Assembly: GCA_031263345.1 (NCBI GenBank)
Contig: JAISFY010000040.1
Coordinates: 1 to 32,787 of the forward strand
DNA: 32,787 bases
Direction of reading: 5' to 3'
Source of the DNA: Holosporales bacterium
GTDB taxonomy: Bacteria > Pseudomonadota > Alphaproteobacteria > RUG11792
Shown here: piece by piece, positions 1 through 22,050 of the stretch
Numbering within the stretch: position 1 is the stretch's first letter
Layout: every line of letters begins with the position of its first letter
Notes under the pieces: model-generated
What the model saw: the letters and a program-made list of their open reading frames with translations, nothing else
Database searches by the model: none
What the model was told of the DNA's origin: nothing
Position numbers and translations under genes: made by a program

Positions 1-677
1 CCGCCCCACTGCTGGCCCATTCCCTGCTGTTGTGCATTGTAGTATTGTGCCTGCTGTTGTTGGTATGGGTGAATTTCCATCCCCGGCTGCTGCTGTCCCC
101 GATTTGGTTGCCCGCCCCACTGCTGCGCCCCTATCTGCGGATAGTACTGTCTCTTCTCCCACCCGTTAGATAGTTGCTCTGGTGATCCTAATCTCACGGC
201 CGGTTGATTCCCCTGCGACGCATTGCCAGGATAGCCGTTTGGATATGCAGAGTTACCATGTTGAGGATAATTCTGATTTTGGGGATAATTCTGATTTGGG
301 AATCCAGAATTTGGATTTACTGGATAGCTCGAACCATATGCCCCTCCTCCTGGGTTACTAGTCTGAGGATTTCCTGGATATTGCCCTGAAGGATATTGGA
401 ACTGTCCCAGTTCCTGAGCTGCTCGGTGTTTGTTTTTTTCATTTTCAACCTTATTACGTAGAGTCTCATTATTTACATTGAAATACTCCCCCATAAGACT
501 CCTGTACTCTCCTATTAAATTCCTGGCAGCCTTACTTGCATCTCCAACCCCGTTAGAAAAACTATTGATCGCTGTTCCTTGAGATTTCACAGTATATAAT
601 ACAAGTACCATGATTACGCTTGATGCTATTGACAAGATACGAAGACGATTTCTTAATGAACATATATCCAAATTCAT
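1..677 (-). CDS. Signal-peptide/signal-anchor protein with a Q/N/Y/P/G-rich low-complexity (prion-like) region; the 3' end runs off the left edge of the window
   Basis: It is absent from the track because its stop lies outside the window. The minus-strand frame opens at ATG 677..675, preceded by AGGAGGG (688..682, 5-nt spacer from the GGAGG core), and stays open to position 1 (225 codons, checked by hand). Translation begins MNLDICSLRNRLRILSIASSVIMVLVLYTVKSQG (basic n-region plus hydrophobic segment), followed by about 60 ordinary residues. It then reads QFQYPSGQYPGNPQTSNPGGGAYGSSYPVNPNSGFPNQNYPQNQNYPQHGNSAYPNGYPGNASQGNQ...GAQQWGGQPNRGQQQPGMEIHPYQQQQAQYYNAQQQGMGQQWGG. Confidence 0.6.
   Translation of the reverse strand, partial: MNLDICSLRNRLRILSIASSVIMVLVLYTVKSQGTAINSFSNGVGDASKAARNLIGEYRSLMGEYFNVNNETLRNKVENEKNKHRAAQELGQFQYPSGQYPGNPQTSNPGGGAYGSSYPVNPNSGFPNQNYPQNQNYPQHGNSAYPNGYPGNASQGNQPAVRLGSPEQLSNGWEKRQYYPQIGAQQWGGQPNRGQQQPGMEIHPYQQQQAQYYNAQQQGMGQQWG
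265..300 (-). repeat. Exact in-frame 18-nt tandem duplication (2 copies) inside the low-complexity CDS, encoding NQNYPQ-NQNYPQ
   Basis: On the plus strand, ggataattctgatttt-gg is followed by ggataattctgattt-ggg (period 18, 265->283). A second longer-range repeat, ccgccccactgctg, occurs at 1..14 and 112..125 and encodes QQWGG twice. Confidence 0.8.
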
Positions 678-729
678 CCTGCCCTCCTGACCGAAGCACT
701 TAACTTCGACTGATCCTACTCCGATTATA
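678..729 (-). promoter_or_regulatory. Candidate promoter -10, 5'-UTR hairpin and SD for the 1..677 gene
   Basis: On the minus strand there is a perfect TATAAT at 729..724. A small hairpin CGAAG-N7-CUUCG (plus coordinates 692..708) follows. The AGGAGGG SD lies at 688..682. No convincing -35 was found (TAAACT at 17-nt spacing, 3/6 match). Confidence 0.3.
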
Positions 730-789
730 AGGGCAAGATATTTAACAGTTTATTAATCAGTTTGTTAATTACTGTTCTTTTACTATTTT

Positions 790-963
790 TTACTTTTCCT
801 TTATCATTCTTTTCTCATGAAAACACTTACGTTCCTGGTATTCACTTTTTTTCCCTTTATTAAACGCAGCCGTAGGGCGATAATACCCCATGACTCGTGT
901 CCAAACCTCACATACAGTCCTATCTTCGTTTTTAATTTCTATAACACTATCTTGTTTATCCAT
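790..963 (-). CDS. Small ORF (57 aa) encoding the NrdD C-terminal glycyl-radical motif, separate from and out of frame with the NrdD body
   Basis: It falls below the 60-aa track cutoff. Hand translation gives MDKQDSVIEIKNEDRTVCEVWTRVMGYYRPTAAFNKGKKSEYQERKCFHEKRMIKEK, ending at TAA 792..790. TRVMGYYRP...FNKGKKSEYQER matches the class III RNR C-terminus (E. coli NrdD RRVCGYLGSPDARPFNAGKQEEVKRR). The ATG 963..961 overlaps the NrdD stop (ATGGATAA) and is preceded by AAGGAGGT (976..969) with a 5-nt spacer. Confidence 0.7.
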   Translation of the reverse strand: MDKQDSVIEIKNEDRTVCEVWTRVMGYYRPTAAFNKGKKSEYQERKCFHEKRMIKEK

Positions 964-2995
964 TAGCTACCTCCTTTTCTCCGAGCACTCTAGATGCTAG
1001 TACCATCTGCCGCTTAATTTCTTCATCGCATTTCGGGCAGTACCGATGCTCTCCCTGTAGATACCCATGCTTCGGACAAACCGAAAATGTCGGTGTTATA
1101 GTTATATATGGTATCTTATACTTTGTCAAGACTCGCCGGACGAGTTCCTTACAAACTGAGTAGTCTGATATGCGTTCCCCGAGATAGATGTGAACCACAG
1201 TCCCTCCCGTGTATTTTCTCTGTAATTCTTCCTGGTGATCGAGTGACTCAAAAAGATCATCTGTATAACCGGCTGGTAATTGAGATGAATTCGTATAATA
1301 CGGGGATTCCTTCGAGCCAGCCTGGATAATATCCGGATACCTCTTTGCATCCTCTTTCGCAAATCGATACATACATCCCTCCGCAGGAGTCGCCTCTAGG
1401 TTGTACAAATGCCCGGTTTCAACTTGAAATTCTATGAGACAACCTCGAATATGGTCTAACACTCTCATCGCAAATTCCTTTCCTTCTGGAGCTGCAATAT
1501 CGATTACATCATCCGTAAAATTTCGAATCATCTCATTTAGCCCATTAACACCAATTGTCGAGAAATGATTCTTGAAAGTTCCGAGGTACCGCTTTGTAAA
1601 TGGATATAATCCATATTCCATCAGTCTAGCAACCACCTTCCTCTTAGTTTCCAAGCTATTTTTCGCCAACTTTAAAAGCTCATCTAAATGAATAATTAAC
1701 CCGGTTTCGTCTTTTTTATGAAGATAACCAAGACGTGCGCAATTTATCGTTACGACCCCGATCGAACCGGTCTGTTCCGCCGACCCGAACAAACTATTTC
1801 CTCGCTTTAGTAGTTCTCGTAAATCGAGCTGTAATCTACAACACATCGATCTAATCATATTTGGGCTTAGATCAGAATTTATAAAATTCTGGAAATATGG
1901 AATGCCATACTTTGCCGTCATCTCGAATAAAATGTTTACATTCTCTCCGTTCCAATCGAAATTCTTAGAAATGTTATAAGTAGGAATAGGGAACGTAAAA
2001 ACTCTTCCATTATTGTCCCCTCGGGTCATGACCTCAATATAAGCCCTGTTAATCATATTCATTTCTTCCTGGAGAACGCCGTAAGTAAATTCCATTTCCC
2101 TGCCGCCAATTATGGGATGCTCATCCGTAAGGTCCTCCGGGCAAACCCAATCGAATGTAAGATTAGTGAATGGCGTTTGAGTTCCCCATCTCGTCGGAAC
2201 ATTCAAATTGTAGATGAAAGACTGCATCTCCTGATAAACTTGCTCATACGTCAGGTTATCAATTCTAATAAAAGGAGCCATATAAGTATCAAACGAGCTA
2301 AACGCCTGCGCACCGGCCCACTCATTTTGCAGGGTCCCTAAGAAATTCACGACCTGGGATAAAGCCGTCGATAAATGTTTCGCCGGTGATGCCTCAGCCT
2401 TTCCACTAACACCATTAAATCCTTCCTGAATGAGCATTTTCAAAGACCATCCGGCACAATATCCAGATAACATGTCCAAATCGTGAATATGTACAAAACC
2501 ATTGATGTGTGCCTCAGATACTTTTGATGTATAAATTCTATTTAGCCAATAGTTTGCGATGACCTTCCCAGATAGATTTAGAATGAGTCCTCCCAGAGAA
2601 TATCCTAGGTTCGCATTTGCTTTTACCCTCCAATCGAGCTGATCAATGTAATCATCTACGCTCGCAATGGCATTGACGAACGACTGATGCTCTGCCCTCA
2701 ATTTGGCGTGTTGCTCACGATAAAGAATATAAGCCTTCGCCGTTTCTACGTATCCGTTTTCGATGAGAATCCTCTCAGCTATATCCTGAATATCCTCAAT
2801 ACTCGGGGATGACTTAAGATACCTTTTCGCTAGAACAGATGTTACTTTAAAGGCGAGCATTCTGGCCTCGCTGATACCAAATTCGTCGGTCACACTCCCC
2901 GCACCAGCAATCGCCTTCGTTATCTTTTCGGTATCAAACGGAGCAAACGTTCCGTCTCTCTTAATTACAAAATTTAGAATTGTATCATTCGACAT
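956..2995 (-). CDS. nrdD: Anaerobic ribonucleoside-triphosphate reductase (class III RNR) large body: ATP-cone, catalytic core and zinc ribbon, lacking an intact glycyl-radical tail
   Basis: The 679-aa ORF has an N-terminal ATP-cone (FVIKRDGTFAPFDTEKITKAI...). It carries typical NrdD blocks (HIHDLD, NEWAGAQAFSSFDTY, SMCCRLQLDLREL, YNLEATPAEG). The C-terminal zinc site is CPKH-x10-CPKC. The ATG at 2995 overlaps the lysyl-tRNA synthetase stop by 11 nt. Confidence 0.93.
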   Translation of the reverse strand: MSNDTILNFVIKRDGTFAPFDTEKITKAIAGAGSVTDEFGISEARMLAFKVTSVLAKRYLKSSPSIEDIQDIAERILIENGYVETAKAYILYREQHAKLRAEHQSFVNAIASVDDYIDQLDWRVKANANLGYSLGGLILNLSGKVIANYWLNRIYTSKVSEAHINGFVHIHDLDMLSGYCAGWSLKMLIQEGFNGVSGKAEASPAKHLSTALSQVVNFLGTLQNEWAGAQAFSSFDTYMAPFIRIDNLTYEQVYQEMQSFIYNLNVPTRWGTQTPFTNLTFDWVCPEDLTDEHPIIGGREMEFTYGVLQEEMNMINRAYIEVMTRGDNNGRVFTFPIPTYNISKNFDWNGENVNILFEMTAKYGIPYFQNFINSDLSPNMIRSMCCRLQLDLRELLKRGNSLFGSAEQTGSIGVVTINCARLGYLHKKDETGLIIHLDELLKLAKNSLETKRKVVARLMEYGLYPFTKRYLGTFKNHFSTIGVNGLNEMIRNFTDDVIDIAAPEGKEFAMRVLDHIRGCLIEFQVETGHLYNLEATPAEGCMYRFAKEDAKRYPDIIQAGSKESPYYTNSSQLPAGYTDDLFESLDHQEELQRKYTGGTVVHIYLGERISDYSVCKELVRRVLTKYKIPYITITPTFSVCPKHGYLQGEHRYCPKCDEEIKRQMVLASRVLGEKEVANG

Positions 2996-4568
2996 TCGCC
3001 AACTCCTTGTTTTTTATTAAATTTATGGTGTTGTTAACTCCGTAAAGATGAATAAAAGATCCCAGTTTGGGACCACTTTCAAACCCAAACAGAAAACCGT
3101 ATAACGTCTTAAACCAGCCCCTCATATCATCTTTGAAAAATCTTTTACCGATCTCGAAAACTTTCGTCTGAAAATCATCAGCATCCGCACGACAATCCAT
3201 CCTTTCGAGCTCATTTCGCAATTCGGTAATTGCCCTTCTTTGCAAATCATCTGGGACTATGAATTTCCTAGTATTCATAACAAAATCTTTATAATACGTA
3301 ATCGCAAATTTAACCATCTTTCTAAGGAACCCCATCGTTTCATCAGATTCACTGCTCTCATCAACGTATTTTCTTACGAATTCCATTAAAACATTTTCAT
3401 CTGCCGTGTTACATGCTTGTACCAAATTTAAAAGCATCGAAAATTTTAAACAATTTGAAAAACGAGGCGGATTTCCATTATGTATGTGAAATACGGGGCT
3501 ATCCAAAATCTTATTATCATTCCCGGAAGCATAATAAGACCTGACGGAATCTATATAATCATCCATCGCGCTCGGGATGACGTCAAAATACAGGCGTTTT
3601 GCACGTTTTGGAGATTGGTACATATAGTATGCCAGACTTTCGGGTGAAGCATACTTCAACCACTCATCCATCGAAAGGCCATTCCCTTTAGATTTAGAAA
3701 TCTTCTTTCCACCTTCGTCGAGGAAGAGTTCGTACGTCAAGTTTTCTGGTGGCCTCCCTCCAATAATTTTGCAAATCTTCGATGATAGTTTGAATGAATC
3801 GATAAGATCTTTTCCATTCATCTCATAATCCACTCCGAGGGCAGCCCAACGCATCCCCCAATCGGCTTTCCACTGCAACTTACAGTAGCCATCGAGAATT
3901 GAAATTTCTTCGAGATTTCCGGTCTCTGGATCCTCGTACACTATCGTACACCTATTCGGATGCATCTCAATGATTGGAACCTGTAAAACCTTCCCAGTTT
4001 TCGGACAAATTGGAAGAAATGGGCTATATGTTTTTTGACGCTCCTCTCGTAATGAAGGCAACATAATATTCATAATTTCTTCGTAATGTATTAATATTTT
4101 TGAGAGATACTCGTTAAAAACTCCAGATTTATACATTTCTGTTGAACTTTTAAATTCATACTCGAATTCAAACGAATCGAGAAATCTTCGCAACATTGCA
4201 TTATTGTGGTGGGCAAAGCTCTCATATTGACCAAATGGATCCGGAACGGAAGTTAGCGGTTTTTCCAGATGAGCTTCGAGTTGCTCACTATTCGGCACAT
4301 TTGCTGGGACCTTTCGCAACCCATCCATATCATCCGAAAAAACGAATAATTTTGCCGGATTATTGGACAATCTCCTAAATGCCCGCATGACCAATGTTGT
4401 TCTTAGAACTTCACCAAATGTACCGATATGAGGCAATCCAGACGGCCCATACCCAGTCTCTAAGACTACGCAATCCTTACCAGCTAAAGTCTTAAGTCGT
4501 TCGATAATTTTCCTAGCCTCTTCAAATGGCCAAGACTTTGCATTACTAAAATGATTATCAGAAAACAT
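2985..4568 (-). CDS. lysS: Lysyl-tRNA synthetase, class I
   Basis: The 527-aa ORF has the class I LysRS layout, with a HIGH-type motif (LPHIGTFGE) and a KMSKS-type motif (KISKSKG). This length and architecture are typical of alphaproteobacterial, spirochaetal and archaeal class I LysRS. Confidence 0.92.
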   Translation of the reverse strand: MFSDNHFSNAKSWPFEEARKIIERLKTLAGKDCVVLETGYGPSGLPHIGTFGEVLRTTLVMRAFRRLSNNPAKLFVFSDDMDGLRKVPANVPNSEQLEAHLEKPLTSVPDPFGQYESFAHHNNAMLRRFLDSFEFEYEFKSSTEMYKSGVFNEYLSKILIHYEEIMNIMLPSLREERQKTYSPFLPICPKTGKVLQVPIIEMHPNRCTIVYEDPETGNLEEISILDGYCKLQWKADWGMRWAALGVDYEMNGKDLIDSFKLSSKICKIIGGRPPENLTYELFLDEGGKKISKSKGNGLSMDEWLKYASPESLAYYMYQSPKRAKRLYFDVIPSAMDDYIDSVRSYYASGNDNKILDSPVFHIHNGNPPRFSNCLKFSMLLNLVQACNTADENVLMEFVRKYVDESSESDETMGFLRKMVKFAITYYKDFVMNTRKFIVPDDLQRRAITELRNELERMDCRADADDFQTKVFEIGKRFFKDDMRGWFKTLYGFLFGFESGPKLGSFIHLYGVNNTINLIKNKELANVE

Positions 4569-4752
4569 ACGGTATTCCCAGCTATTCGATAGATAAAAAC
4601 TTATAAAAACGATAACTCATGATAGCACTTCTCCTGCCCAATTAAAACGTCTGTGTTGTTAGGCTTCGTTATGGAAAATTTCAACGAAACCAGACCATTG
4701 TGCAAGCAAAGTACATAAACGGTAAATACTTGAAAAATTTTCCTCACGAGAC

Positions 4753-7293
4753 CTAGTATCTTTTATTCCATCCAAGCCCACATCCCAGTGAATTTTTTCC
4801 AGATAAATCTAATGCTAGCTTAGCTTTTTTAGTAAGTTGCTTTTCTACCACCACTTTAGTCGTATCTTTTCCAACTCCCTGATCAATTGATATTTTCATT
4901 GTTCCTATGCTCTTCCCAACACTCACCGATGACCTCTCACCCGATACCGCATCTGTACTCTTTTTGATTTCTAACGCATCTATGCCGAATACTGATTGAA
5001 GTTTATCGACAATATCAAATCCTCCATTGTTGGATAATTTTCCCATCATTGAAAATAAAATGAGAGCTTCTCCAGTCGAAATTTCGGAAGATCTTTTATT
5101 GAACAGTAGATACGAAAGAATATCAACATTCGATACATACGGTTTTGAAAAAAACGTAACCCTCGCTCCATCTGCATTTTGAATAAACTTGGCCCCAACC
5201 TTAATATTATCCAGACTTTTTACGGCAGAAACTTGGACATTAATCACATCAGGCTGAGAACTATCAGTCCAAATTTTCCCATCTTTTAAATTAAATTTTT
5301 GCCCGGAAACTTTTACGAATCCTTTTGTCATCGTAATCTCTGCTTGATACTTAGGCTCCGAGGTATCACCAAAAACTGAAGCTCCCCCATCCCAACGGCT
5401 ATTTATCCCGAATTCGGATACCATCTCTAATCCGTTTTTGAAAGTAAACTTGATGTCTATAGGCCACTGTATTAAAACATTTTTCTTCTGATTTTTCGTG
5501 CCAGATTGTTTCTTCGGTTCGATGATTTCCATCGATCTGGAAGATTTTGTTATTAATCTCGAAACGTCCACTTTGGTATCTTTTGAGTATAAATCACCGG
5601 ATATCTGGAGACTCCGTAATATATCGCCTTTCGCTGTAATTTTCCCATTTAACTTTCCGTAGAGCTCATTGAGTTCGACAATATTAAAATCATGGAAATC
5701 GACAGAAACATCTGTGTCTAATTTATCTTTGCTGAAGACGATCTTTCCGCCACCCGTTATCGTTCCACGAGGTGTTCCATCATCCGTTGCGTATATCTTA
5801 TTAATTATAATACAATTGTTCCTAATGGTAGCCAATATCGTACCGCCCTTAATGAAAGTACTGCATTTCGGATTCATATATGCCAAATTCTTTAGTACCA
5901 GACTCCCGGAAAAAACTGGCTGCGATATAATTCCAGCAACATCAATATCATACTTCAGATGACCATCGGCAAACTGTCGATTACCTACTCCATAATTTTG
6001 CATCATAAACTCTCCACGAGCTTTTGCCTTAATAATGCTTTTCGAAGACGGGATCCAGTTTTCTATCACTAGCTTACAGTCGATAGTGCTCCATTTTTTC
6101 AGAAGATTGTATCGCAATGTAGCAGCAATACCATTTTCCCGCCAAGTAGCACGTATATCAAGAACTGGCATTTTTATTTCTCCGAGATCCCAATCATGTA
6201 ATTTGGCCGTAAAATATCCAGTGCCATTTGCGTAAGTTCCTTTCCCATCTATCACCCCTGCACCCATTCCCTGCCACCTCAGAATCTCCGATAAAAGAAC
6301 ATTTTTAATTTCTATCTGTCCAATCGAAATCGTTTCTGAAAATAGATCTACATCTTTTATATCGATACTACCATCCTTTATTAGTATTTGTATTTTCGGA
6401 ATAATATCACCGATTCGCAGTATAAATGGTTTAAACGCAATTTTATCATTAAAAAGCATCTCATTGATCCAAAGTAATTTATTCGATATATCAAAATCCA
6501 AATCGACAAAGAGACCGATATTTTTCGCATATGTCTTGGCCTTTATTTGCCCGTTCGTCATAGATAATTGACATGATAATTTCTGATTATATTCTGGTAG
6601 ATCTATAATACCGTTTACGAAGTTACCAGAATAGACTCCATCAAATGAAAATACTCCGTGGAGCTTGAATCGGCAACTTAAGCTTAAATGCTGATCGTGT
6701 AACCCATACATTACATCTATCCAGAAATCTGAGCTAGCCAGATTGAGAATAATATTCGAATTCTGAACTTTGATATGTGTTTCATAGGTTTTTTCGTTAA
6801 TCACGCAATTAAAAACCCGAATACCTAAGGCGTTATCCAGTAAAAAAGAAATATCTCGAATCTTTAAGCCATTAAACTCCAATTCATCGATCGTAGCCCT
6901 TTTCACGACTTTCTGACAAGCTATCTGGAAAATTTTTTGAACATCGGAAAAGTCGGGCCCCTGAACGTTATTAGAAATTACAGTCATTTTGCCAATTTTG
7001 ATATTACGAACATGGGTCATTTTTTTGCTGAGAAGAACGGTAATATTTGATATATCAATATCAGGTATCGAACGGCTCTCTACGAACTTAATTTGAAGTC
7101 GATCAATTGAGAAAGAAAACGGGAAAAATCCAGTCGAATTGACTATAACAACTTCGATTCCTTTACCAACTATCATATTGACTAATACATTCTGAATTTT
7201 AGCATTTTGTAACAATAAGACGATTAAAGTAAAGATAATGGCTATCCAAAAAGCAACTTTTAATGCTCTCCTAATCAGGAACCGAATAACCAC
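4753..7293 (-). CDS. tamB: Translocation and assembly module protein TamB (DUF490 family), short form
   Basis: The N-terminal signal anchor is (V)VIRFLIRRALKVAFWIAIIFTLIVLLL. The body is long and beta-rich. The TamB/DUF490-type C-terminus is ...LALDLSGKNSLGCGLGWNKRY. The track ORF starts at ATG 7341 and would overlap pepF by 71 nt. GTG 7293 is preceded by GGAGG (7304..7300, 6-nt spacer) and is my preferred start. Confidence 0.8.
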   Translation of the reverse strand: MVIRFLIRRALKVAFWIAIIFTLIVLLLQNAKIQNVLVNMIVGKGIEVVIVNSTGFFPFSFSIDRLQIKFVESRSIPDIDISNITVLLSKKMTHVRNIKIGKMTVISNNVQGPDFSDVQKIFQIACQKVVKRATIDELEFNGLKIRDISFLLDNALGIRVFNCVINEKTYETHIKVQNSNIILNLASSDFWIDVMYGLHDQHLSLSCRFKLHGVFSFDGVYSGNFVNGIIDLPEYNQKLSCQLSMTNGQIKAKTYAKNIGLFVDLDFDISNKLLWINEMLFNDKIAFKPFILRIGDIIPKIQILIKDGSIDIKDVDLFSETISIGQIEIKNVLLSEILRWQGMGAGVIDGKGTYANGTGYFTAKLHDWDLGEIKMPVLDIRATWRENGIAATLRYNLLKKWSTIDCKLVIENWIPSSKSIIKAKARGEFMMQNYGVGNRQFADGHLKYDIDVAGIISQPVFSGSLVLKNLAYMNPKCSTFIKGGTILATIRNNCIIINKIYATDDGTPRGTITGGGKIVFSKDKLDTDVSVDFHDFNIVELNELYGKLNGKITAKGDILRSLQISGDLYSKDTKVDVSRLITKSSRSMEIIEPKKQSGTKNQKKNVLIQWPIDIKFTFKNGLEMVSEFGINSRWDGGASVFGDTSEPKYQAEITMTKGFVKVSGQKFNLKDGKIWTDSSQPDVINVQVSAVKSLDNIKVGAKFIQNADGARVTFFSKPYVSNVDILSYLLFNKRSSEISTGEALILFSMMGKLSNNGGFDIVDKLQSVFGIDALEIKKSTDAVSGERSSVSVGKSIGTMKISIDQGVGKDTTKVVVEKQLTKKAKLALDLSGKNSLGCGLGWNKRY

Positions 7294-13725: not shown

Positions 13726-15327
13726 TCAGGAGATTCCTTCGATTGCCCATGCTATACTTGCCTCACGCCGATCCATTACTGAGTAACGAATCTCTATCGT
13801 CGGATAATTACCCTCTAAATTTCTAGCAATGAATACTTCGCAATCTTGCGATTGCTGAAAAATACTGAGAATATACTCTGAACTCTTGTGATTTATCAAT
13901 ATGCTCTGCGAGTGTATTTCTTTTGTAATCGTTTGGTGATCGAAGACAAACCTAGGAAATGCTTGAAAGGGATCAGATGCACGAATAAAGTCCCTACCTC
14001 TTACCCCTTCCGTGCTAAGGTTAATCGTGATTTCTCTTTGCATATCAAAATTAAAGTAACGGCTTTTTTGTTGAACCTCACCGACGAAATGTAGTTCCCC
14101 CCTTTCGTGTTTGATTTTAGAAAAATATTTTGCATTTTCTCTGATTTTAATACGAAACCCATTAAGCAATACTGTAATATCGGCTCTATTAATCATTCTA
14201 TTCAAACCAAAACTTGCTTCAAAATCAAAAATATTAAGACCTGGCTCTAATGGGGTACTAAATCGAGACCTTATGCAGCAAGGTTTGGTATTAACTATTA
14301 AAACGATCTTCTTCGTAGATAACCTCGTAAATCCCGAAATCGTAATCGGTCCACTATTTTTTGATTCGACGACGGAAAGGGCTGTATCGATCATTTGCCG
14401 AGTAGGAGCTAACCCAGAATTTAATAAAGGTCCATCTCCTACGTGCCCAGAAATTTCTCCGTCTCCAAGTCTCAAAAATCTAATACATGCCGCCATCCTA
14501 CCCAAGCAATCAATAAAAACTCTATTGGGTAGTTCGATTCCAGAGTTCTTAAAAATAAATCTTATTTCGATAAGACTCTTAAACATATTAAAGTGATCGT
14601 TCGGATTACGGTTTATTATCATTCCTGAAGAATCGAGCGAACTCTCAGTAATCCCGGTAATTTCTTTAATGATTCGCCTGATCTTAACGAATTGAGTATT
14701 TCTCATTGAGCAAAGGCATGCTACAATCGCCTTTAGTGCGATTAAGCGCGCTTGTGGATTCAACTCAGCCTTGTAGCATCTCCAAAGATGAGAAAATTGC
14801 TCCGCTATTGATGATAGGATGATTTTCTGGAACGAATCGTTAGAGCCGGATGCGAAAAAGGAGTAAGAAAACATCCAATTGATAAGACGCTCTCCGACAA
14901 TCGGAAGTGCCCAGCTACTTTGATGTAACCAAAAACCCTTCATCTTCCGGTAATTATTTATAAAGATCAGTATAAGATCGCGGGTGAGCCTCATACTTCC
15001 GTTGCCACCAACTGCCTGAAGATGCCGGATCCATTCAAAATTATAAGCATACTCATTGCCCATATTATTAATTAGGTTTTCCATCAGATCCAATGAAAAT
15101 CCAGGTTTATTGGAAATGCTATTAAGAATATCCTTCCCGATTGCTGAGTTCCCAGACCAAGGATCAGTCAGAAATTTATTTGGATTTAAAGTATTATCGC
15201 GTTTTTCAAGAGAAAATCTGTAGAAAATACTATTCTGCATAATGCCGATTTTATGAGAGTAGTATGCTTCTATGAACTTTTTTAACATGACATAAAACGA
15301 TAGCACTACACGAACGATAGTATACAC
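13726..15327 (-). CDS. Heparinase II/III-like family protein (function unknown)
   Basis: The 533-aa ORF resembles, by recall, the conserved alphaproteobacterial heparinase II/III-like proteins (N-terminal ...DPWSGNSAIGKDIL... block, all-alpha N-half and beta-rich C-half). The start is uncertain: GTG at 15327 or the first ATG at 15288. Confidence 0.6.
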   Translation of the reverse strand: MYTIVRVVLSFYVMLKKFIEAYYSHKIGIMQNSIFYRFSLEKRDNTLNPNKFLTDPWSGNSAIGKDILNSISNKPGFSLDLMENLINNMGNEYAYNFEWIRHLQAVGGNGSMRLTRDLILIFINNYRKMKGFWLHQSSWALPIVGERLINWMFSYSFFASGSNDSFQKIILSSIAEQFSHLWRCYKAELNPQARLIALKAIVACLCSMRNTQFVKIRRIIKEITGITESSLDSSGMIINRNPNDHFNMFKSLIEIRFIFKNSGIELPNRVFIDCLGRMAACIRFLRLGDGEISGHVGDGPLLNSGLAPTRQMIDTALSVVESKNSGPITISGFTRLSTKKIVLIVNTKPCCIRSRFSTPLEPGLNIFDFEASFGLNRMINRADITVLLNGFRIKIRENAKYFSKIKHERGELHFVGEVQQKSRYFNFDMQREITINLSTEGVRGRDFIRASDPFQAFPRFVFDHQTITKEIHSQSILINHKSSEYILSIFQQSQDCEVFIARNLEGNYPTIEIRYSVMDRREASIAWAIEGIS

Positions 15328-20088: not shown

Positions 20089-21297
20089 ATGCGCTGCACG
20101 GATAGATTATTCGCGGCTCTGAGAGAGGCCATTCCCGGAGCCGTATGGGCCGTTGGATTTGCATCTCTTTTGGCCAATGTGTCGACTTCAGTAGCATTCG
20201 CCGGATCAGCATTGTATCTCAAGACGGTCCTCGGAGTATCGGTCGCAACTATCGGTATGTTAGAGGCTTTGGTAGAAGCTGTCGCTTATGGAGTAAGGAT
20301 ATTTTCTGGAGTTTTGAGTGATTACCTTCGAAAACGAAAAGCGTTCTTAATCTTGGGATTTGCTATGCTTGCTGTCGCGAAACCTATTCTTGCCCTATCC
20401 AGATCCTTCGGAGAGGTTCTTATCGCGAGGGCAACCGATAGGATTGGGAATGGAATTCAGGCGTCTCCTCGGGAGGCACTGATTAGTGATCTTGCCCAAA
20501 AAGAACATAAAGGAGCTTGTTTTGGTCTAAGGCAATCCTTGGCCGTTATCGGCTCTACCCTTGGAGGGCTGTTCGGAATTGTCGTTATGCAGATGACAAA
20601 TAACAATTTTAAGATTATGTTTATGCTAGCTGGGCTACCGGCCATTGCCTCCGTTTTGATCCTAATTTTCTTTGTACACGAAAAAATCGATTCCAAAAAA
20701 CGCAAAAGAGAAAAACGAAAAATCAGAATACATGATCTAAAATTGCTAGGCAAAAAATTCTGGTTATTGATGATCATCGTAATCGCTACTATGTCAGCTC
20801 GATTCAGCGAAGTCTTTATATCATTATTCGCTTATAGTAGTTTTGGAATGGATGTATCGTACTGCACATCCGTGACAGTTGTCTATAACCTACTATCCGT
20901 TTTCGTATCATATCCGATGGGGAAATTGTCCGATCGGATGAGTCGGACGGCCATTCTATTTATCGGAATAATTTTCCTTGCCATGGCGCACTTAGCAATC
21001 GGATTCGCACACAGTCTAACTATGGTTTTCATAGGAACAATTTTTTGGGGAATTCAGAGAGGAATAACGGAGGCCATGTTTGCTACCTTAGTATCCGATT
21101 ATATCCCAAAAGATCTACGTGGGACTGGATTTGGAGCGTACTATCTCATCGTTTCCGGATCGACAGCAGGTGCGAGCGCCATGGCCGGTATTATATCTCA
21201 ATCACTCGGTGAAGGGGCTGCCTTTCTTGTGGGGGCGTGCATTTGCTGTTTCGCTCTCGTTTTGTTTCTATTTTTCAGGAAGCCCTTGTCCATCTGA
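20089..21297 (+). CDS. MFS-family transporter (substrate unknown)
   Basis: The 402-aa protein has about 12 predicted hydrophobic segments. It has an MFS-like loop motif (DRIGNG after TM2-3, and LSDRMSRT in the second half) and a central basic loop (KKRKREKRKIR). Confidence 0.75.
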   Translation: MRCTDRLFAALREAIPGAVWAVGFASLLANVSTSVAFAGSALYLKTVLGVSVATIGMLEALVEAVAYGVRIFSGVLSDYLRKRKAFLILGFAMLAVAKPILALSRSFGEVLIARATDRIGNGIQASPREALISDLAQKEHKGACFGLRQSLAVIGSTLGGLFGIVVMQMTNNNFKIMFMLAGLPAIASVLILIFFVHEKIDSKKRKREKRKIRIHDLKLLGKKFWLLMIIVIATMSARFSEVFISLFAYSSFGMDVSYCTSVTVVYNLLSVFVSYPMGKLSDRMSRTAILFIGIIFLAMAHLAIGFAHSLTMVFIGTIFWGIQRGITEAMFATLVSDYIPKDLRGTGFGAYYLIVSGSTAGASAMAGIISQSLGEGAAFLVGACICCFALVLFLFFRKPLSI

Positions 21298-22050
21298 CTT
21301 GATTATGTTTGCCGCCATCCGAATTGCGAAGTATATTGCGATTGAAAACAAGAAAAATCTCAGTTGTCCAAATACTATTCTCAATTGGATACTTGCAATC
21401 CCATTAAGTAAATATATCATAGTCACGATCCCTGTCCACAGTAATAATGCAAGGCATTTCTGAGACCATTTCGTGAGACTGATCCAGCACAATTCCCTTC
21501 CGACCGTAATGCCCGAAAAAATGTAAAGAGCCATCCAATTATAATCCTTTGCTCCATATATCAATTGAAGTGTATAAAATGCTGTAATTACTGGTAAAAT
21601 GAATATGGCAGGAGTAGGCATCGTCTTATACTTTTTTCGCAGTATATGGTATATCGCGATTTCTGAGAACGCGAAGGCGATGGCCCCGGCAATGTCGTAC
21701 CAGTCGTGAAAATGACAATATACTATCGCTGATGCTATGCAACCCAAGATAGTGGCAAAAATCACTTTCTCAGTATAATTCTGCGCTCTATAAAAAAAAT
21801 AACCGTAAAAAATTGTGGCAACATGCATATGGCCGCTCGGAAAAGCATAACCGGGGCCAAGATTTGGAAATAGCGGAATCTTAAAGAGATTCTTAAGCAA
21901 AGTATTAAAAATTATAACGAAACACACAAAACAGGCACTTTGCTCAAAATCCTCTTTACGGTAGTGAAACAAAATTCCTAACACGATGGCGAAAGCGATA
22001 ACATCTCCTTGCCCCATCTTTAGGGCAAAATAGACGAGATTATCAACCAT
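21268..22050 (-). CDS. PAP2-superfamily membrane protein (phosphatase-like) with extra C-terminal TM segments
   Basis: PSGH (FPSGHMH) and HxxxD (HDWYD) motifs sit in the expected order in a polytopic membrane protein. The Arg residues of the KxxxxxxRP and SR motifs are not evident. The 3' end overlaps the convergent MFS gene by 30 nt. Confidence 0.6.
   Translation of the reverse strand: MVDNLVYFALKMGQGDVIAFAIVLGILFHYRKEDFEQSACFVCFVIIFNTLLKNLFKIPLFPNLGPGYAFPSGHMHVATIFYGYFFYRAQNYTEKVIFATILGCIASAIVYCHFHDWYDIAGAIAFAFSEIAIYHILRKKYKTMPTPAIFILPVITAFYTLQLIYGAKDYNWMALYIFSGITVGRELCWISLTKWSQKCLALLLWTGIVTMIYLLNGIASIQLRIVFGQLRFFLFSIAIYFAIRMAANIIKSDGQGLPEK

Follow-up and report, generated by a model that had tools for sequence, protein, structure and literature searches.

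A probable two-chain class III ribonucleotide reductase with a separately encoded glycyl-radical domain in a Holosporales bacterium

The DNA analyzed here (the window) comprises positions 1 to 32,787 of contig JAISFY010000040.1 from a Holosporales bacterium (assembly GCA_031263345.1). Near its start is an nrdD locus in which the ribonucleotide reductase (RNR) of the anaerobic class III is divided between two genes, one for a 679-residue catalytic body and one for a 57-residue protein that carries the glycyl-radical motif on a small open reading frame (ORF) of its own. The locus very probably encodes a naturally split, obligate two-chain class III RNR. The observations that carry this reading are the anatomy of the genes, the homology of the two pieces, the conservation of the layout, purifying selection, relatives in which the small gene is unlinked, and natural relatives in which the two pieces are fused. 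The locus has the following features.

956..2995, minus strand: nrdD body, 679 residues, the catalytic subunit of a class III RNR, lacking a glycyl-radical domain.
2705..2971, minus strand: ATP-cone, body residues 9-97 (PF03477, 75 bits, E = 4.9e-21), the allosteric regulatory domain.
1838..1843, minus strand: Cys385-Cys386 in the motif RSMCCRLQLD, invariant in an alignment of 21 family members.
1028..1078, minus strand: zinc ribbon C640-x2-H643-x9-C653-x2-C656, read directly from the translation.
959..1027, minus strand: body tail, residues 657-679 (DEEIKRQMVLASRVLGEKEVANG), with an RVLG look-alike inside it.
969..976, minus strand: Shine-Dalgarno sequence AAGGAGGT, within the body coding sequence and separated by a 5-nt spacer from the ATG of the small ORF.
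790..963, minus strand: small ORF, 57 residues, a free-standing glycyl-radical domain with the translation MDKQDSVIEIKNEDRTVCEVWTRVMGYYRPTAAFNKGKKSEYQERKCFHEKRMIKEK.
814..921, minus strand: conserved core, residues 15-50 of the small protein, from an alignment of 50 small proteins.
886..888, minus strand: codon of Gly26, the predicted radical glycine, aligned to the glycine of RIVGY in T. maritima NrdD and invariant in 50 of 50 small proteins.

The body matches the Pfam NRDD family (PF13597) with 585 bits against a cut-off of 26.2, and the match extends from residue 127 to residue 672 (profile positions 2-541 of 562). It also scores 476 bits against TIGR02487 (cut-off 326) and 1104 bits against NCBIfam NF006126 (cut-off 548; model positions 4-661 of 684). 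The Cys385-Cys386 motif is presumed to be the finger loop that forms the thiyl radical. The two-knuckle zinc ribbon characteristic of NrdD is present with His in the second Cys position and reads C640-P-K-H643 ... C653-P-K-C656, and its four ligands are invariant in the family alignment. The sequence R669-V-L-G672-E starts twelve residues past the ribbon and is followed by KEVANG, giving a C-terminus of DEEIKRQMVLAS-RVLG-EKEVANG that stops 23 residues beyond the ribbon. There is no other R-[VIL]-x-G-[YFWH] motif in the 679 residues, which means that the body lacks the radical motif that NrdD has on the same polypeptide. Direct reading and the Pfam and NCBIfam matches thus agree with the original prediction, made from the sequence alone, of a body with an ATP-cone, a catalytic core and a zinc ribbon that then reads SRVLGE and ends early.

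The complete glycyl-radical motif is located on the small ORF (...CEVWTRVMG26YYRPTAAFNKGKKSEYQERK...). A score of 35.1 bits against Pfam NRDD (gathering cut-off 26.2) at profile positions 530-562 of 562 identifies the small ORF as the C-terminal piece of NrdD and confirms that the motif had been correctly assigned to a separate 57-residue ORF. The small ORF also matches three NCBIfam NrdD models over their final ~30 positions and aligns with residues 614-646 of T. maritima NrdD, RIVGY included. NRDD is its sole Pfam match at E ≤ 1, and the glycine-radical domain of the pyruvate formate-lyase (PFL) type is not among the matches. The body (positions 2-541) and the small ORF (530-562) are complementary on the NRDD profile, and the same pattern is obtained with the NCBIfam models. 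The body can be aligned to solved NrdD structures no further than the second CPxC knuckle, at query residue 658 and T. maritima residue 610. Because the body reaches T. maritima residue 610 and the small ORF covers 614-646, the break falls directly after the zinc ribbon. The invariant or near-invariant columns of the conserved core are R-T-V-C18-E-V-W-T-R-V-M-G26-Y-Y-R-P-x3-F-N-K-G-K-K-S-E-Y-x-E-R-x-C-F-x-E.

The two genes meet at ATGGATAA, where the ATG of the small ORF (963..961) overlaps the body stop TAA (958..956) and sets the small ORF in the +1 frame. The final codons of the body tail double as the Shine-Dalgarno sequence and the start codon of the small ORF. The overlapping ATG and stop, the Shine-Dalgarno sequence and the 5-nt spacer are therefore all found at the junction as predicted. 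The internal Shine-Dalgarno sequence and the overlapping start support a predicted coupling of small-ORF translation to that of the body. The junction has no homopolymer. Logan contig L001 (run SRR14710921) is identical to window positions 262..4766 with both ORFs present, and may stem from the same reads. A promoter and terminator scan around the locus returned nothing beyond shuffled expectation.

The layout was compared among relatives by scanning one genome per GTDB species, which found 569 relatives; the layout counts cover the best 80 loci.

66 of 80 loci: split layout, in which the body stops soon past CPKCDEE and (C)E(V/I)(W/Y)TRVMGY(H/Y)RP...FNxGKKxE is carried by a separate ORF downstream.
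1 of 80 loci: single chain, L046 from Gemmatimonadota, CPRCGGETEVYARIVGYYRPV.
6 of 80 loci: no small ORF despite at least 1 kb of downstream sequence.
7 of 80 loci: layout not readable because the contig ends too early.

A split NrdD family was defined from these loci as a body that ends ~10-60 residues past CPKCDEE together with a separate ORF of 55-70 residues containing C-x4-RVMGY-x-RP-x3-FN-x-GK, and the window locus belongs to it. The hosts of the split layout are Holosporales, other Alphaproteobacteria, Betaproteobacteria, Flavobacterium and other Bacteroidota, Campylobacterota, Verrucomicrobiota, Actinomycetes and candidate-phylum (Patescibacteria) lineages. Relative to the body, the small ORF of the 66 split loci is in the +1 frame in 35, in the +2 frame in 17 and in frame in 14. 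The body stop is TAA, TAG or TGA, and the spacing from body to small ORF ranges from -83 to +390 nt. Three frames, three stops and a variable spacing mean that a single recoding signal does not explain the split. The gene directly after the small ORF is nrdG at 61 of the 66. One locus, L054 from Candidatus Peribacteria, has an nrdD body interrupted by an internal stop under translation table 11 and was excluded from the alignments; an alternative code in which UGA is a sense codon is suspected.

The split is also present in cultured bacteria whose genomes are complete. On megaplasmid pHG1 of Cupriavidus necator H16, RefSeq lists a 676-residue 'ribonucleoside triphosphate reductase', a 66-residue 'nrdD' and the activase consecutively. 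A Bradyrhizobium plasmid has body, small gene and activase in the same way as pHG1, and Ralstonia solanacearum has a body with an overlapping small ORF, like the window; in all, 161 plasmid or chromid records match. The genome paper of C. metallidurans gives NrdDG as Rmet_5137 and Rmet_5139, omitting the intervening gene (PMC2864759). The nrdDG genes of H16 are reported there, from Siedow 1999, to be required for anaerobic denitrifying growth (PMC2864759). As the H16 nrdDG locus is itself split, this report indicates that the split enzyme functions in vivo.

Conservation of the junction was assessed in the three closest relatives (L002, L003 and L004). Their bodies are 87-90% identical to that of the window, with 90% for L002 and L003, and none of the three differs in the Shine-Dalgarno sequence or the overlapping start. 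Comparison with the closest relatives had been proposed as a check of the two-ORF layout and the internal Shine-Dalgarno sequence, and both are retained in each of them. The ratio of nonsynonymous to synonymous substitution rates (dN/dS) of the small ORF is 0.01-0.11 against these relatives, and synonymous sites are almost saturated. Purifying selection on the small ORF is strong. Its database homologues are also small: the 50 found are all 40-91 residues long. With E ≤ 1e-3 as the limit, a profile built from them retrieved 4542 representative clusters; tightening the limit to E ≤ 1e-10 left 1170, and none of the best 150 is shorter than 54 or longer than 152 residues. No phage match to the small ORF was found.

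In other Holosporales and in rumen Alphaproteobacteria the small gene is solitary. It adjoins grpE or is located between transporter and regulator genes, and there is no nrdD or nrdG within 5 kb of these solitary genes. One Holosporales relative (L092, 3452..7058) keeps the lysS-nrdD order of the window and has ffh directly after the body, and its small gene is on another contig of the same sequencing run. Two pairs of body and small gene have NCBI protein accessions that are ~400-450 apart, and such neighboring accessions are taken to mean that both members come from the same metagenome-assembled genome. The relocated small genes are still 63-72% identical, and the small gene therefore encodes an independent product that acts in trans. 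The original proposal that the second cistron is translationally coupled and that the enzyme is a two-chain class III RNR is thus upheld by 66 split loci of 80 with three frames and three stops, by purifying selection and by the unlinked small genes of Holosporales.

Natural single-chain forms occur close to the window locus. Five NrdDs among the bodies that are 67-68% identical to the query (P0252, P0253, P0283, P0289 and P0287) are single chains. P0252, P0253, P0283 and P0289 have 732-743 residues and a linker that resembles the body tail plus the N-terminus of the small ORF (...CEKCDDEIRAQKGLPMDAHLPDDQRQKCEVWTRVMGYLRPV...). P0287 has 700 residues, a compact linker (CPTCAEQGVETNCEVWTRVMGYHRPV) and an nrdG gene after it. 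Translation on their contigs confirmed that P0253 and P0287 are single chains (L089 and L090, listed with the fused relatives). The fused relatives fall inside the split clade in a neighbor-joining tree that is rough and not robust, and this nested position suggests that they are secondary gene re-fusions. Covalent linkage of the radical domain and its non-covalent attachment appear to be interchangeable. A candidate fusion of the radical domain to NrdG (P0344, 306 residues, 25 cluster members) was rejected as a gene-calling artifact: its contig (L094, 1634..2554) has an in-frame stop between a 68-residue small ORF and nrdG. An intron or mobile element as the origin of the split was also rejected, because the gaps in relatives are too short for a homing endonuclease and the window has no Rfam hit; no tRNA was found in the window either.

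The RVLG look-alike in the body tail had been read as a decayed copy of the motif left by a partial tandem duplication of the C-terminus. In a rival reading of the locus, such a duplication of the 3' end would also have created the split. The position of RVLG fits this idea. RVLG starts 12 residues after CPKC in the body, within the range set by the motif in the fused L046 and P0287 (8 and 13 residues), and the Pfam alignment of the body terminates exactly on G672, roughly at the profile position of the radical glycine. The residues shared by tail and small ORF, EIK and (S/T)RV(L/M)G, do exist as described; their similarity does not exceed chance, as local alignment of the tail with the small ORF gives p = 0.44 for protein and p = 0.51 for DNA against shuffled tails. 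The tail alone has no Pfam hit. Tail plus zinc knuckle scores 14.1 bits compared with 11.7 for a relative's tail that lacks RVLG, so RVLG contributes only ~2 bits. RVLGE is not a conserved feature either, as its glycine is replaced in L004 (RVICD) and L007 (GILRD). The tail is conserved in the closest clade only. The tails of the other split clades are unrelated and mostly charged with no trace of RVLG, although the Holosporales clade is nested among them. The tail dN/dS of 0.04-0.11 is low at least partly because the Shine-Dalgarno sequence and the start codon are embedded in it and constrain its 3' portion. A degenerate remnant of a duplicated radical motif is thus an unlikely origin for SRVLGE, and the duplication idea is unsupported by these sequence comparisons.

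The genes around the locus are ordinary housekeeping genes with few exceptions. The class I lysyl-tRNA synthetase gene (lysS, 2985..4568, minus strand) precedes nrdD, and its end overlaps the nrdD start by 11 nt. Downstream, an ORF that runs from 677 off the window start (1..677, minus strand) encodes a hydrophobic N-terminal segment followed by a low-complexity protein rich in Q, N, G and P; it is unrelated to NrdG though placed where most relatives have nrdG. ORFs 13726..15327 (533 residues) and 21268..22050 (260 residues), both on the minus strand, have no Pfam match at E ≤ 1e-5.

A mechanism for the two-chain enzyme can be proposed by analogy; activation, docking and subunit exchange are inferred from single-chain NrdD and from PFL with its partner YfiD. 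The NrdG activase, a radical S-adenosylmethionine enzyme that would be encoded elsewhere in the genome, would take a hydrogen from the small protein's Gly26. Once activated, the small protein would dock by the zinc ribbon of the body and insert its glycine loop into the barrel next to C385/C386. The radical would then move to the finger-loop cysteine, and nucleoside triphosphates would be reduced as in single-chain NrdD. A likely benefit of this arrangement is that oxygen cleavage at the radical glycine would cost a replaceable 6-kDa subunit and spare the 77-kDa enzyme. An extension of this mechanism is possible, and is offered tentatively: across a broad clade, the free domain would be an exchangeable 'radical cartridge' of ~60 residues that is activated by NrdG, plugged into a radical-less body and replaced after oxygen cleavage. 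Such a cartridge may be anchored by a near-invariant Cys next to the Cys/His zinc ribbon of the body. Five residues ahead of the RVMG arginine, this Cys (C18 in the window, 910..912, minus strand) is shared by 187 of the 189 small proteins and by the nested fused forms, but neither the fused outgroup L046 nor T. maritima NrdD has it. C18 could be a docking or metal ligand. The His at the second zinc-ligand position, likewise specific to the family, may also be relevant to docking.

Cysteine pairs (CC, CxC or CxxC) are found in the tails of some family members. They occur in 39 of 189 small proteins (~20%) and in 20 of 116 bodies (17%) among P0001-P0314. The bodies with such tails are mostly Holosporales-like, and class I and class II RNRs have similar tails that act as redox shuttles. 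The body and the small protein of the window have no Cys-pair tail.

Several observations weigh against a two-chain enzyme. The activase is missing from the neighborhood: tblastn with two NrdG proteins detected no NrdG in the 32.8-kb window or in L002-L011, and there is no nrdG within 4 kb in the three closest relatives. Among the matches listed in a search for NrdG proteins, none bore a Holosporales name. The pairing of bodies with unlinked small genes rests on a shared sequencing run and neighboring accessions rather than on a closed genome. The system is known here from its genes, and translation of the small ORF, the radical and the complex are predicted. Structure models do not help docking. 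An AlphaFold2 model of the window body and small protein, concatenated as a single sequence, has a mean predicted local distance difference test (pLDDT) score of 37. The model of the fused relative P0253 has a mean pLDDT of 75 and template modeling scores of 0.6-0.76 to solved class III RNRs. Its zinc ribbon, tail helix, linker and CEVWT strand are at ~90 pLDDT, and its glycine loop, last (C-terminal) helix and finger loop are below 50. As to docking, the P0253 model offers neither support nor contradiction.

Three other explanations keep a single chain or give the small protein another role. A programmed +1 frameshift at GGA-UAA, stimulated by the Shine-Dalgarno sequence as in prfB, would produce one fused chain with no separate translation of the small ORF. 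A one-base skip at the stop would indeed unite the frames in the window and in L002-L004, a strong Shine-Dalgarno sequence does precede the body stop, and tolerance of a long linker is evident from the natural fused relatives. This Shine-Dalgarno sequence, however, is 5 nt from the ATG, a distance ideal for initiation, but ~10 nt from the stop, and in the +1 frame GGA leaves no room for slippery re-pairing. Frameshifting is impossible in relatives whose small ORF is in frame 0, +1 or +2 at distances of up to 390 nt or is on another contig, and programmed frameshifting is accordingly very improbable. An assembly or sequencing indel, or a recent pseudogenizing frameshift in an ordinary single-chain nrdD, was an alternative left standing by the original prediction. 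A one-base change near 956..968 would join the ORFs, and endosymbiont-like genomes are prone to pseudogenes. This alternative is ruled out by conservation, selection and the unlinked relatives, and its probability is negligible: the sequence from a second assembler is identical, the junction lacks a homopolymer, the layout is common to three relatives that differ at most synonymous sites, the dN/dS of the small ORF does not exceed 0.11, and the split is present in 66 of 80 species.

The small protein might instead be a true spare part, comparable to GrcA (YfiD), that rescues a full-length NrdD encoded elsewhere, with the 679-residue body inactive or otherwise employed. The precedent is PFL with YfiD (PMC13450708), and the window is the only part of this genome that was seen. 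Against it, none of the family's invariant catalytic residues is missing from the body, whose sequence is highly conserved (90% identical in L002 and L003). Body, small ORF and nrdG form one operon in 61 loci, and the nrdDG locus of H16 pHG1 reported as necessary for anaerobic growth is itself the split one. These points make a rescue role improbable. The obligate two-chain RNR differs from a spare-part system in that the body has no radical domain of its own, and the small protein is therefore obligatory. The earlier analogy with GrcA/YfiD holds insofar as the small protein is an autonomous glycyl-radical protein and fails with respect to the spare part, the small protein being an obligate subunit.

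The descriptions of glycyl-radical enzymes that were consulted present them as one polypeptide whose radical glycine is close to the C-terminus, and the exception they name is YfiD, the spare part of PFL. The searchable full-text literature yielded no account of a split NrdD, subscription literature being outside the search. The arrangement is undescribed in that literature with its pieces annotated separately in RefSeq, and RNR specialists may be informally aware of it. Annotation routinely labels the body as a complete reductase; the small ORF is called 'nrdD' or 'hypothetical protein' and is absent from some gene tables. The split clade of class III RNRs, with its separate and selected radical gene, includes genetically tractable organisms. 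Activation of the free domain by NrdG, docking of the peptide with hand-over of the radical, and repair of oxygen damage by exchange of the small subunit are all directly testable now. The cartridge, if it exists, would extend the spare-part principle beyond PFL for the first time, and in an obligate form. It would provide a cheaply repairable anaerobic RNR to facultative or micro-oxic Cupriavidus, Ralstonia, Bradyrhizobium, Flavobacterium, Sulfurimonas and protist-associated Holosporales. Within the family, the window is unusual mainly in its overlapping start and its lost linkage to nrdG.

The split family shares the NRDD domain, the ATP-cone, the zinc ribbon and the RVxGY...FNxGK motif with the single-chain NrdD enzymes that work with NrdG (E. 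coli, phage T4, T. maritima, P. copri and S. thermophilus). Most split relatives have nrdG next to them, whereas the window has no nrdG nearby. The radical domain of the split family is a separate product of ~55-70 residues, its second zinc ligand is His rather than Cys, and its near-invariant Cys before RVMG is missing in fused outgroups. GrcA/YfiD is similar in that a small free-standing protein corresponds to the C-terminal glycyl-radical domain of a large enzyme, and both small proteins would require the activase of the large enzyme and insertion in trans. YfiD, however, is homologous to PFL and the small ORF to NrdD. PFL retains its own radical domain, for which YfiD substitutes after oxygen cleavage, whereas the split body has none, in the window and in 66 relatives. 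A 2026 review describes spare-part proteins for formate lyases only and lists other glycyl-radical enzymes with such a partner as an open question (PMC13450708).

Other RNR classes offer two further comparisons. The class II NrdJa/NrdJb of Pseudomonas aeruginosa is likewise an RNR catalytic subunit naturally divided over two neighboring genes, and the break is in its C-terminal region, but it belongs to another RNR class and depends on B12. A 2022 survey of RNR extensions places the class III radical domain at the C-terminus and describes splitting for class II NrdJa/b only (PMC9669993). Class I NrdB resembles the small protein in holding the radical on a polypeptide apart from the catalytic barrel, from which it is passed to the active-site cysteine. 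NrdB is an unrelated ferritin-like metalloprotein that acts by long-range radical transfer, whereas the carrier of the split family is homologous to the C-terminus of NrdD and presumably enters the barrel by direct insertion.

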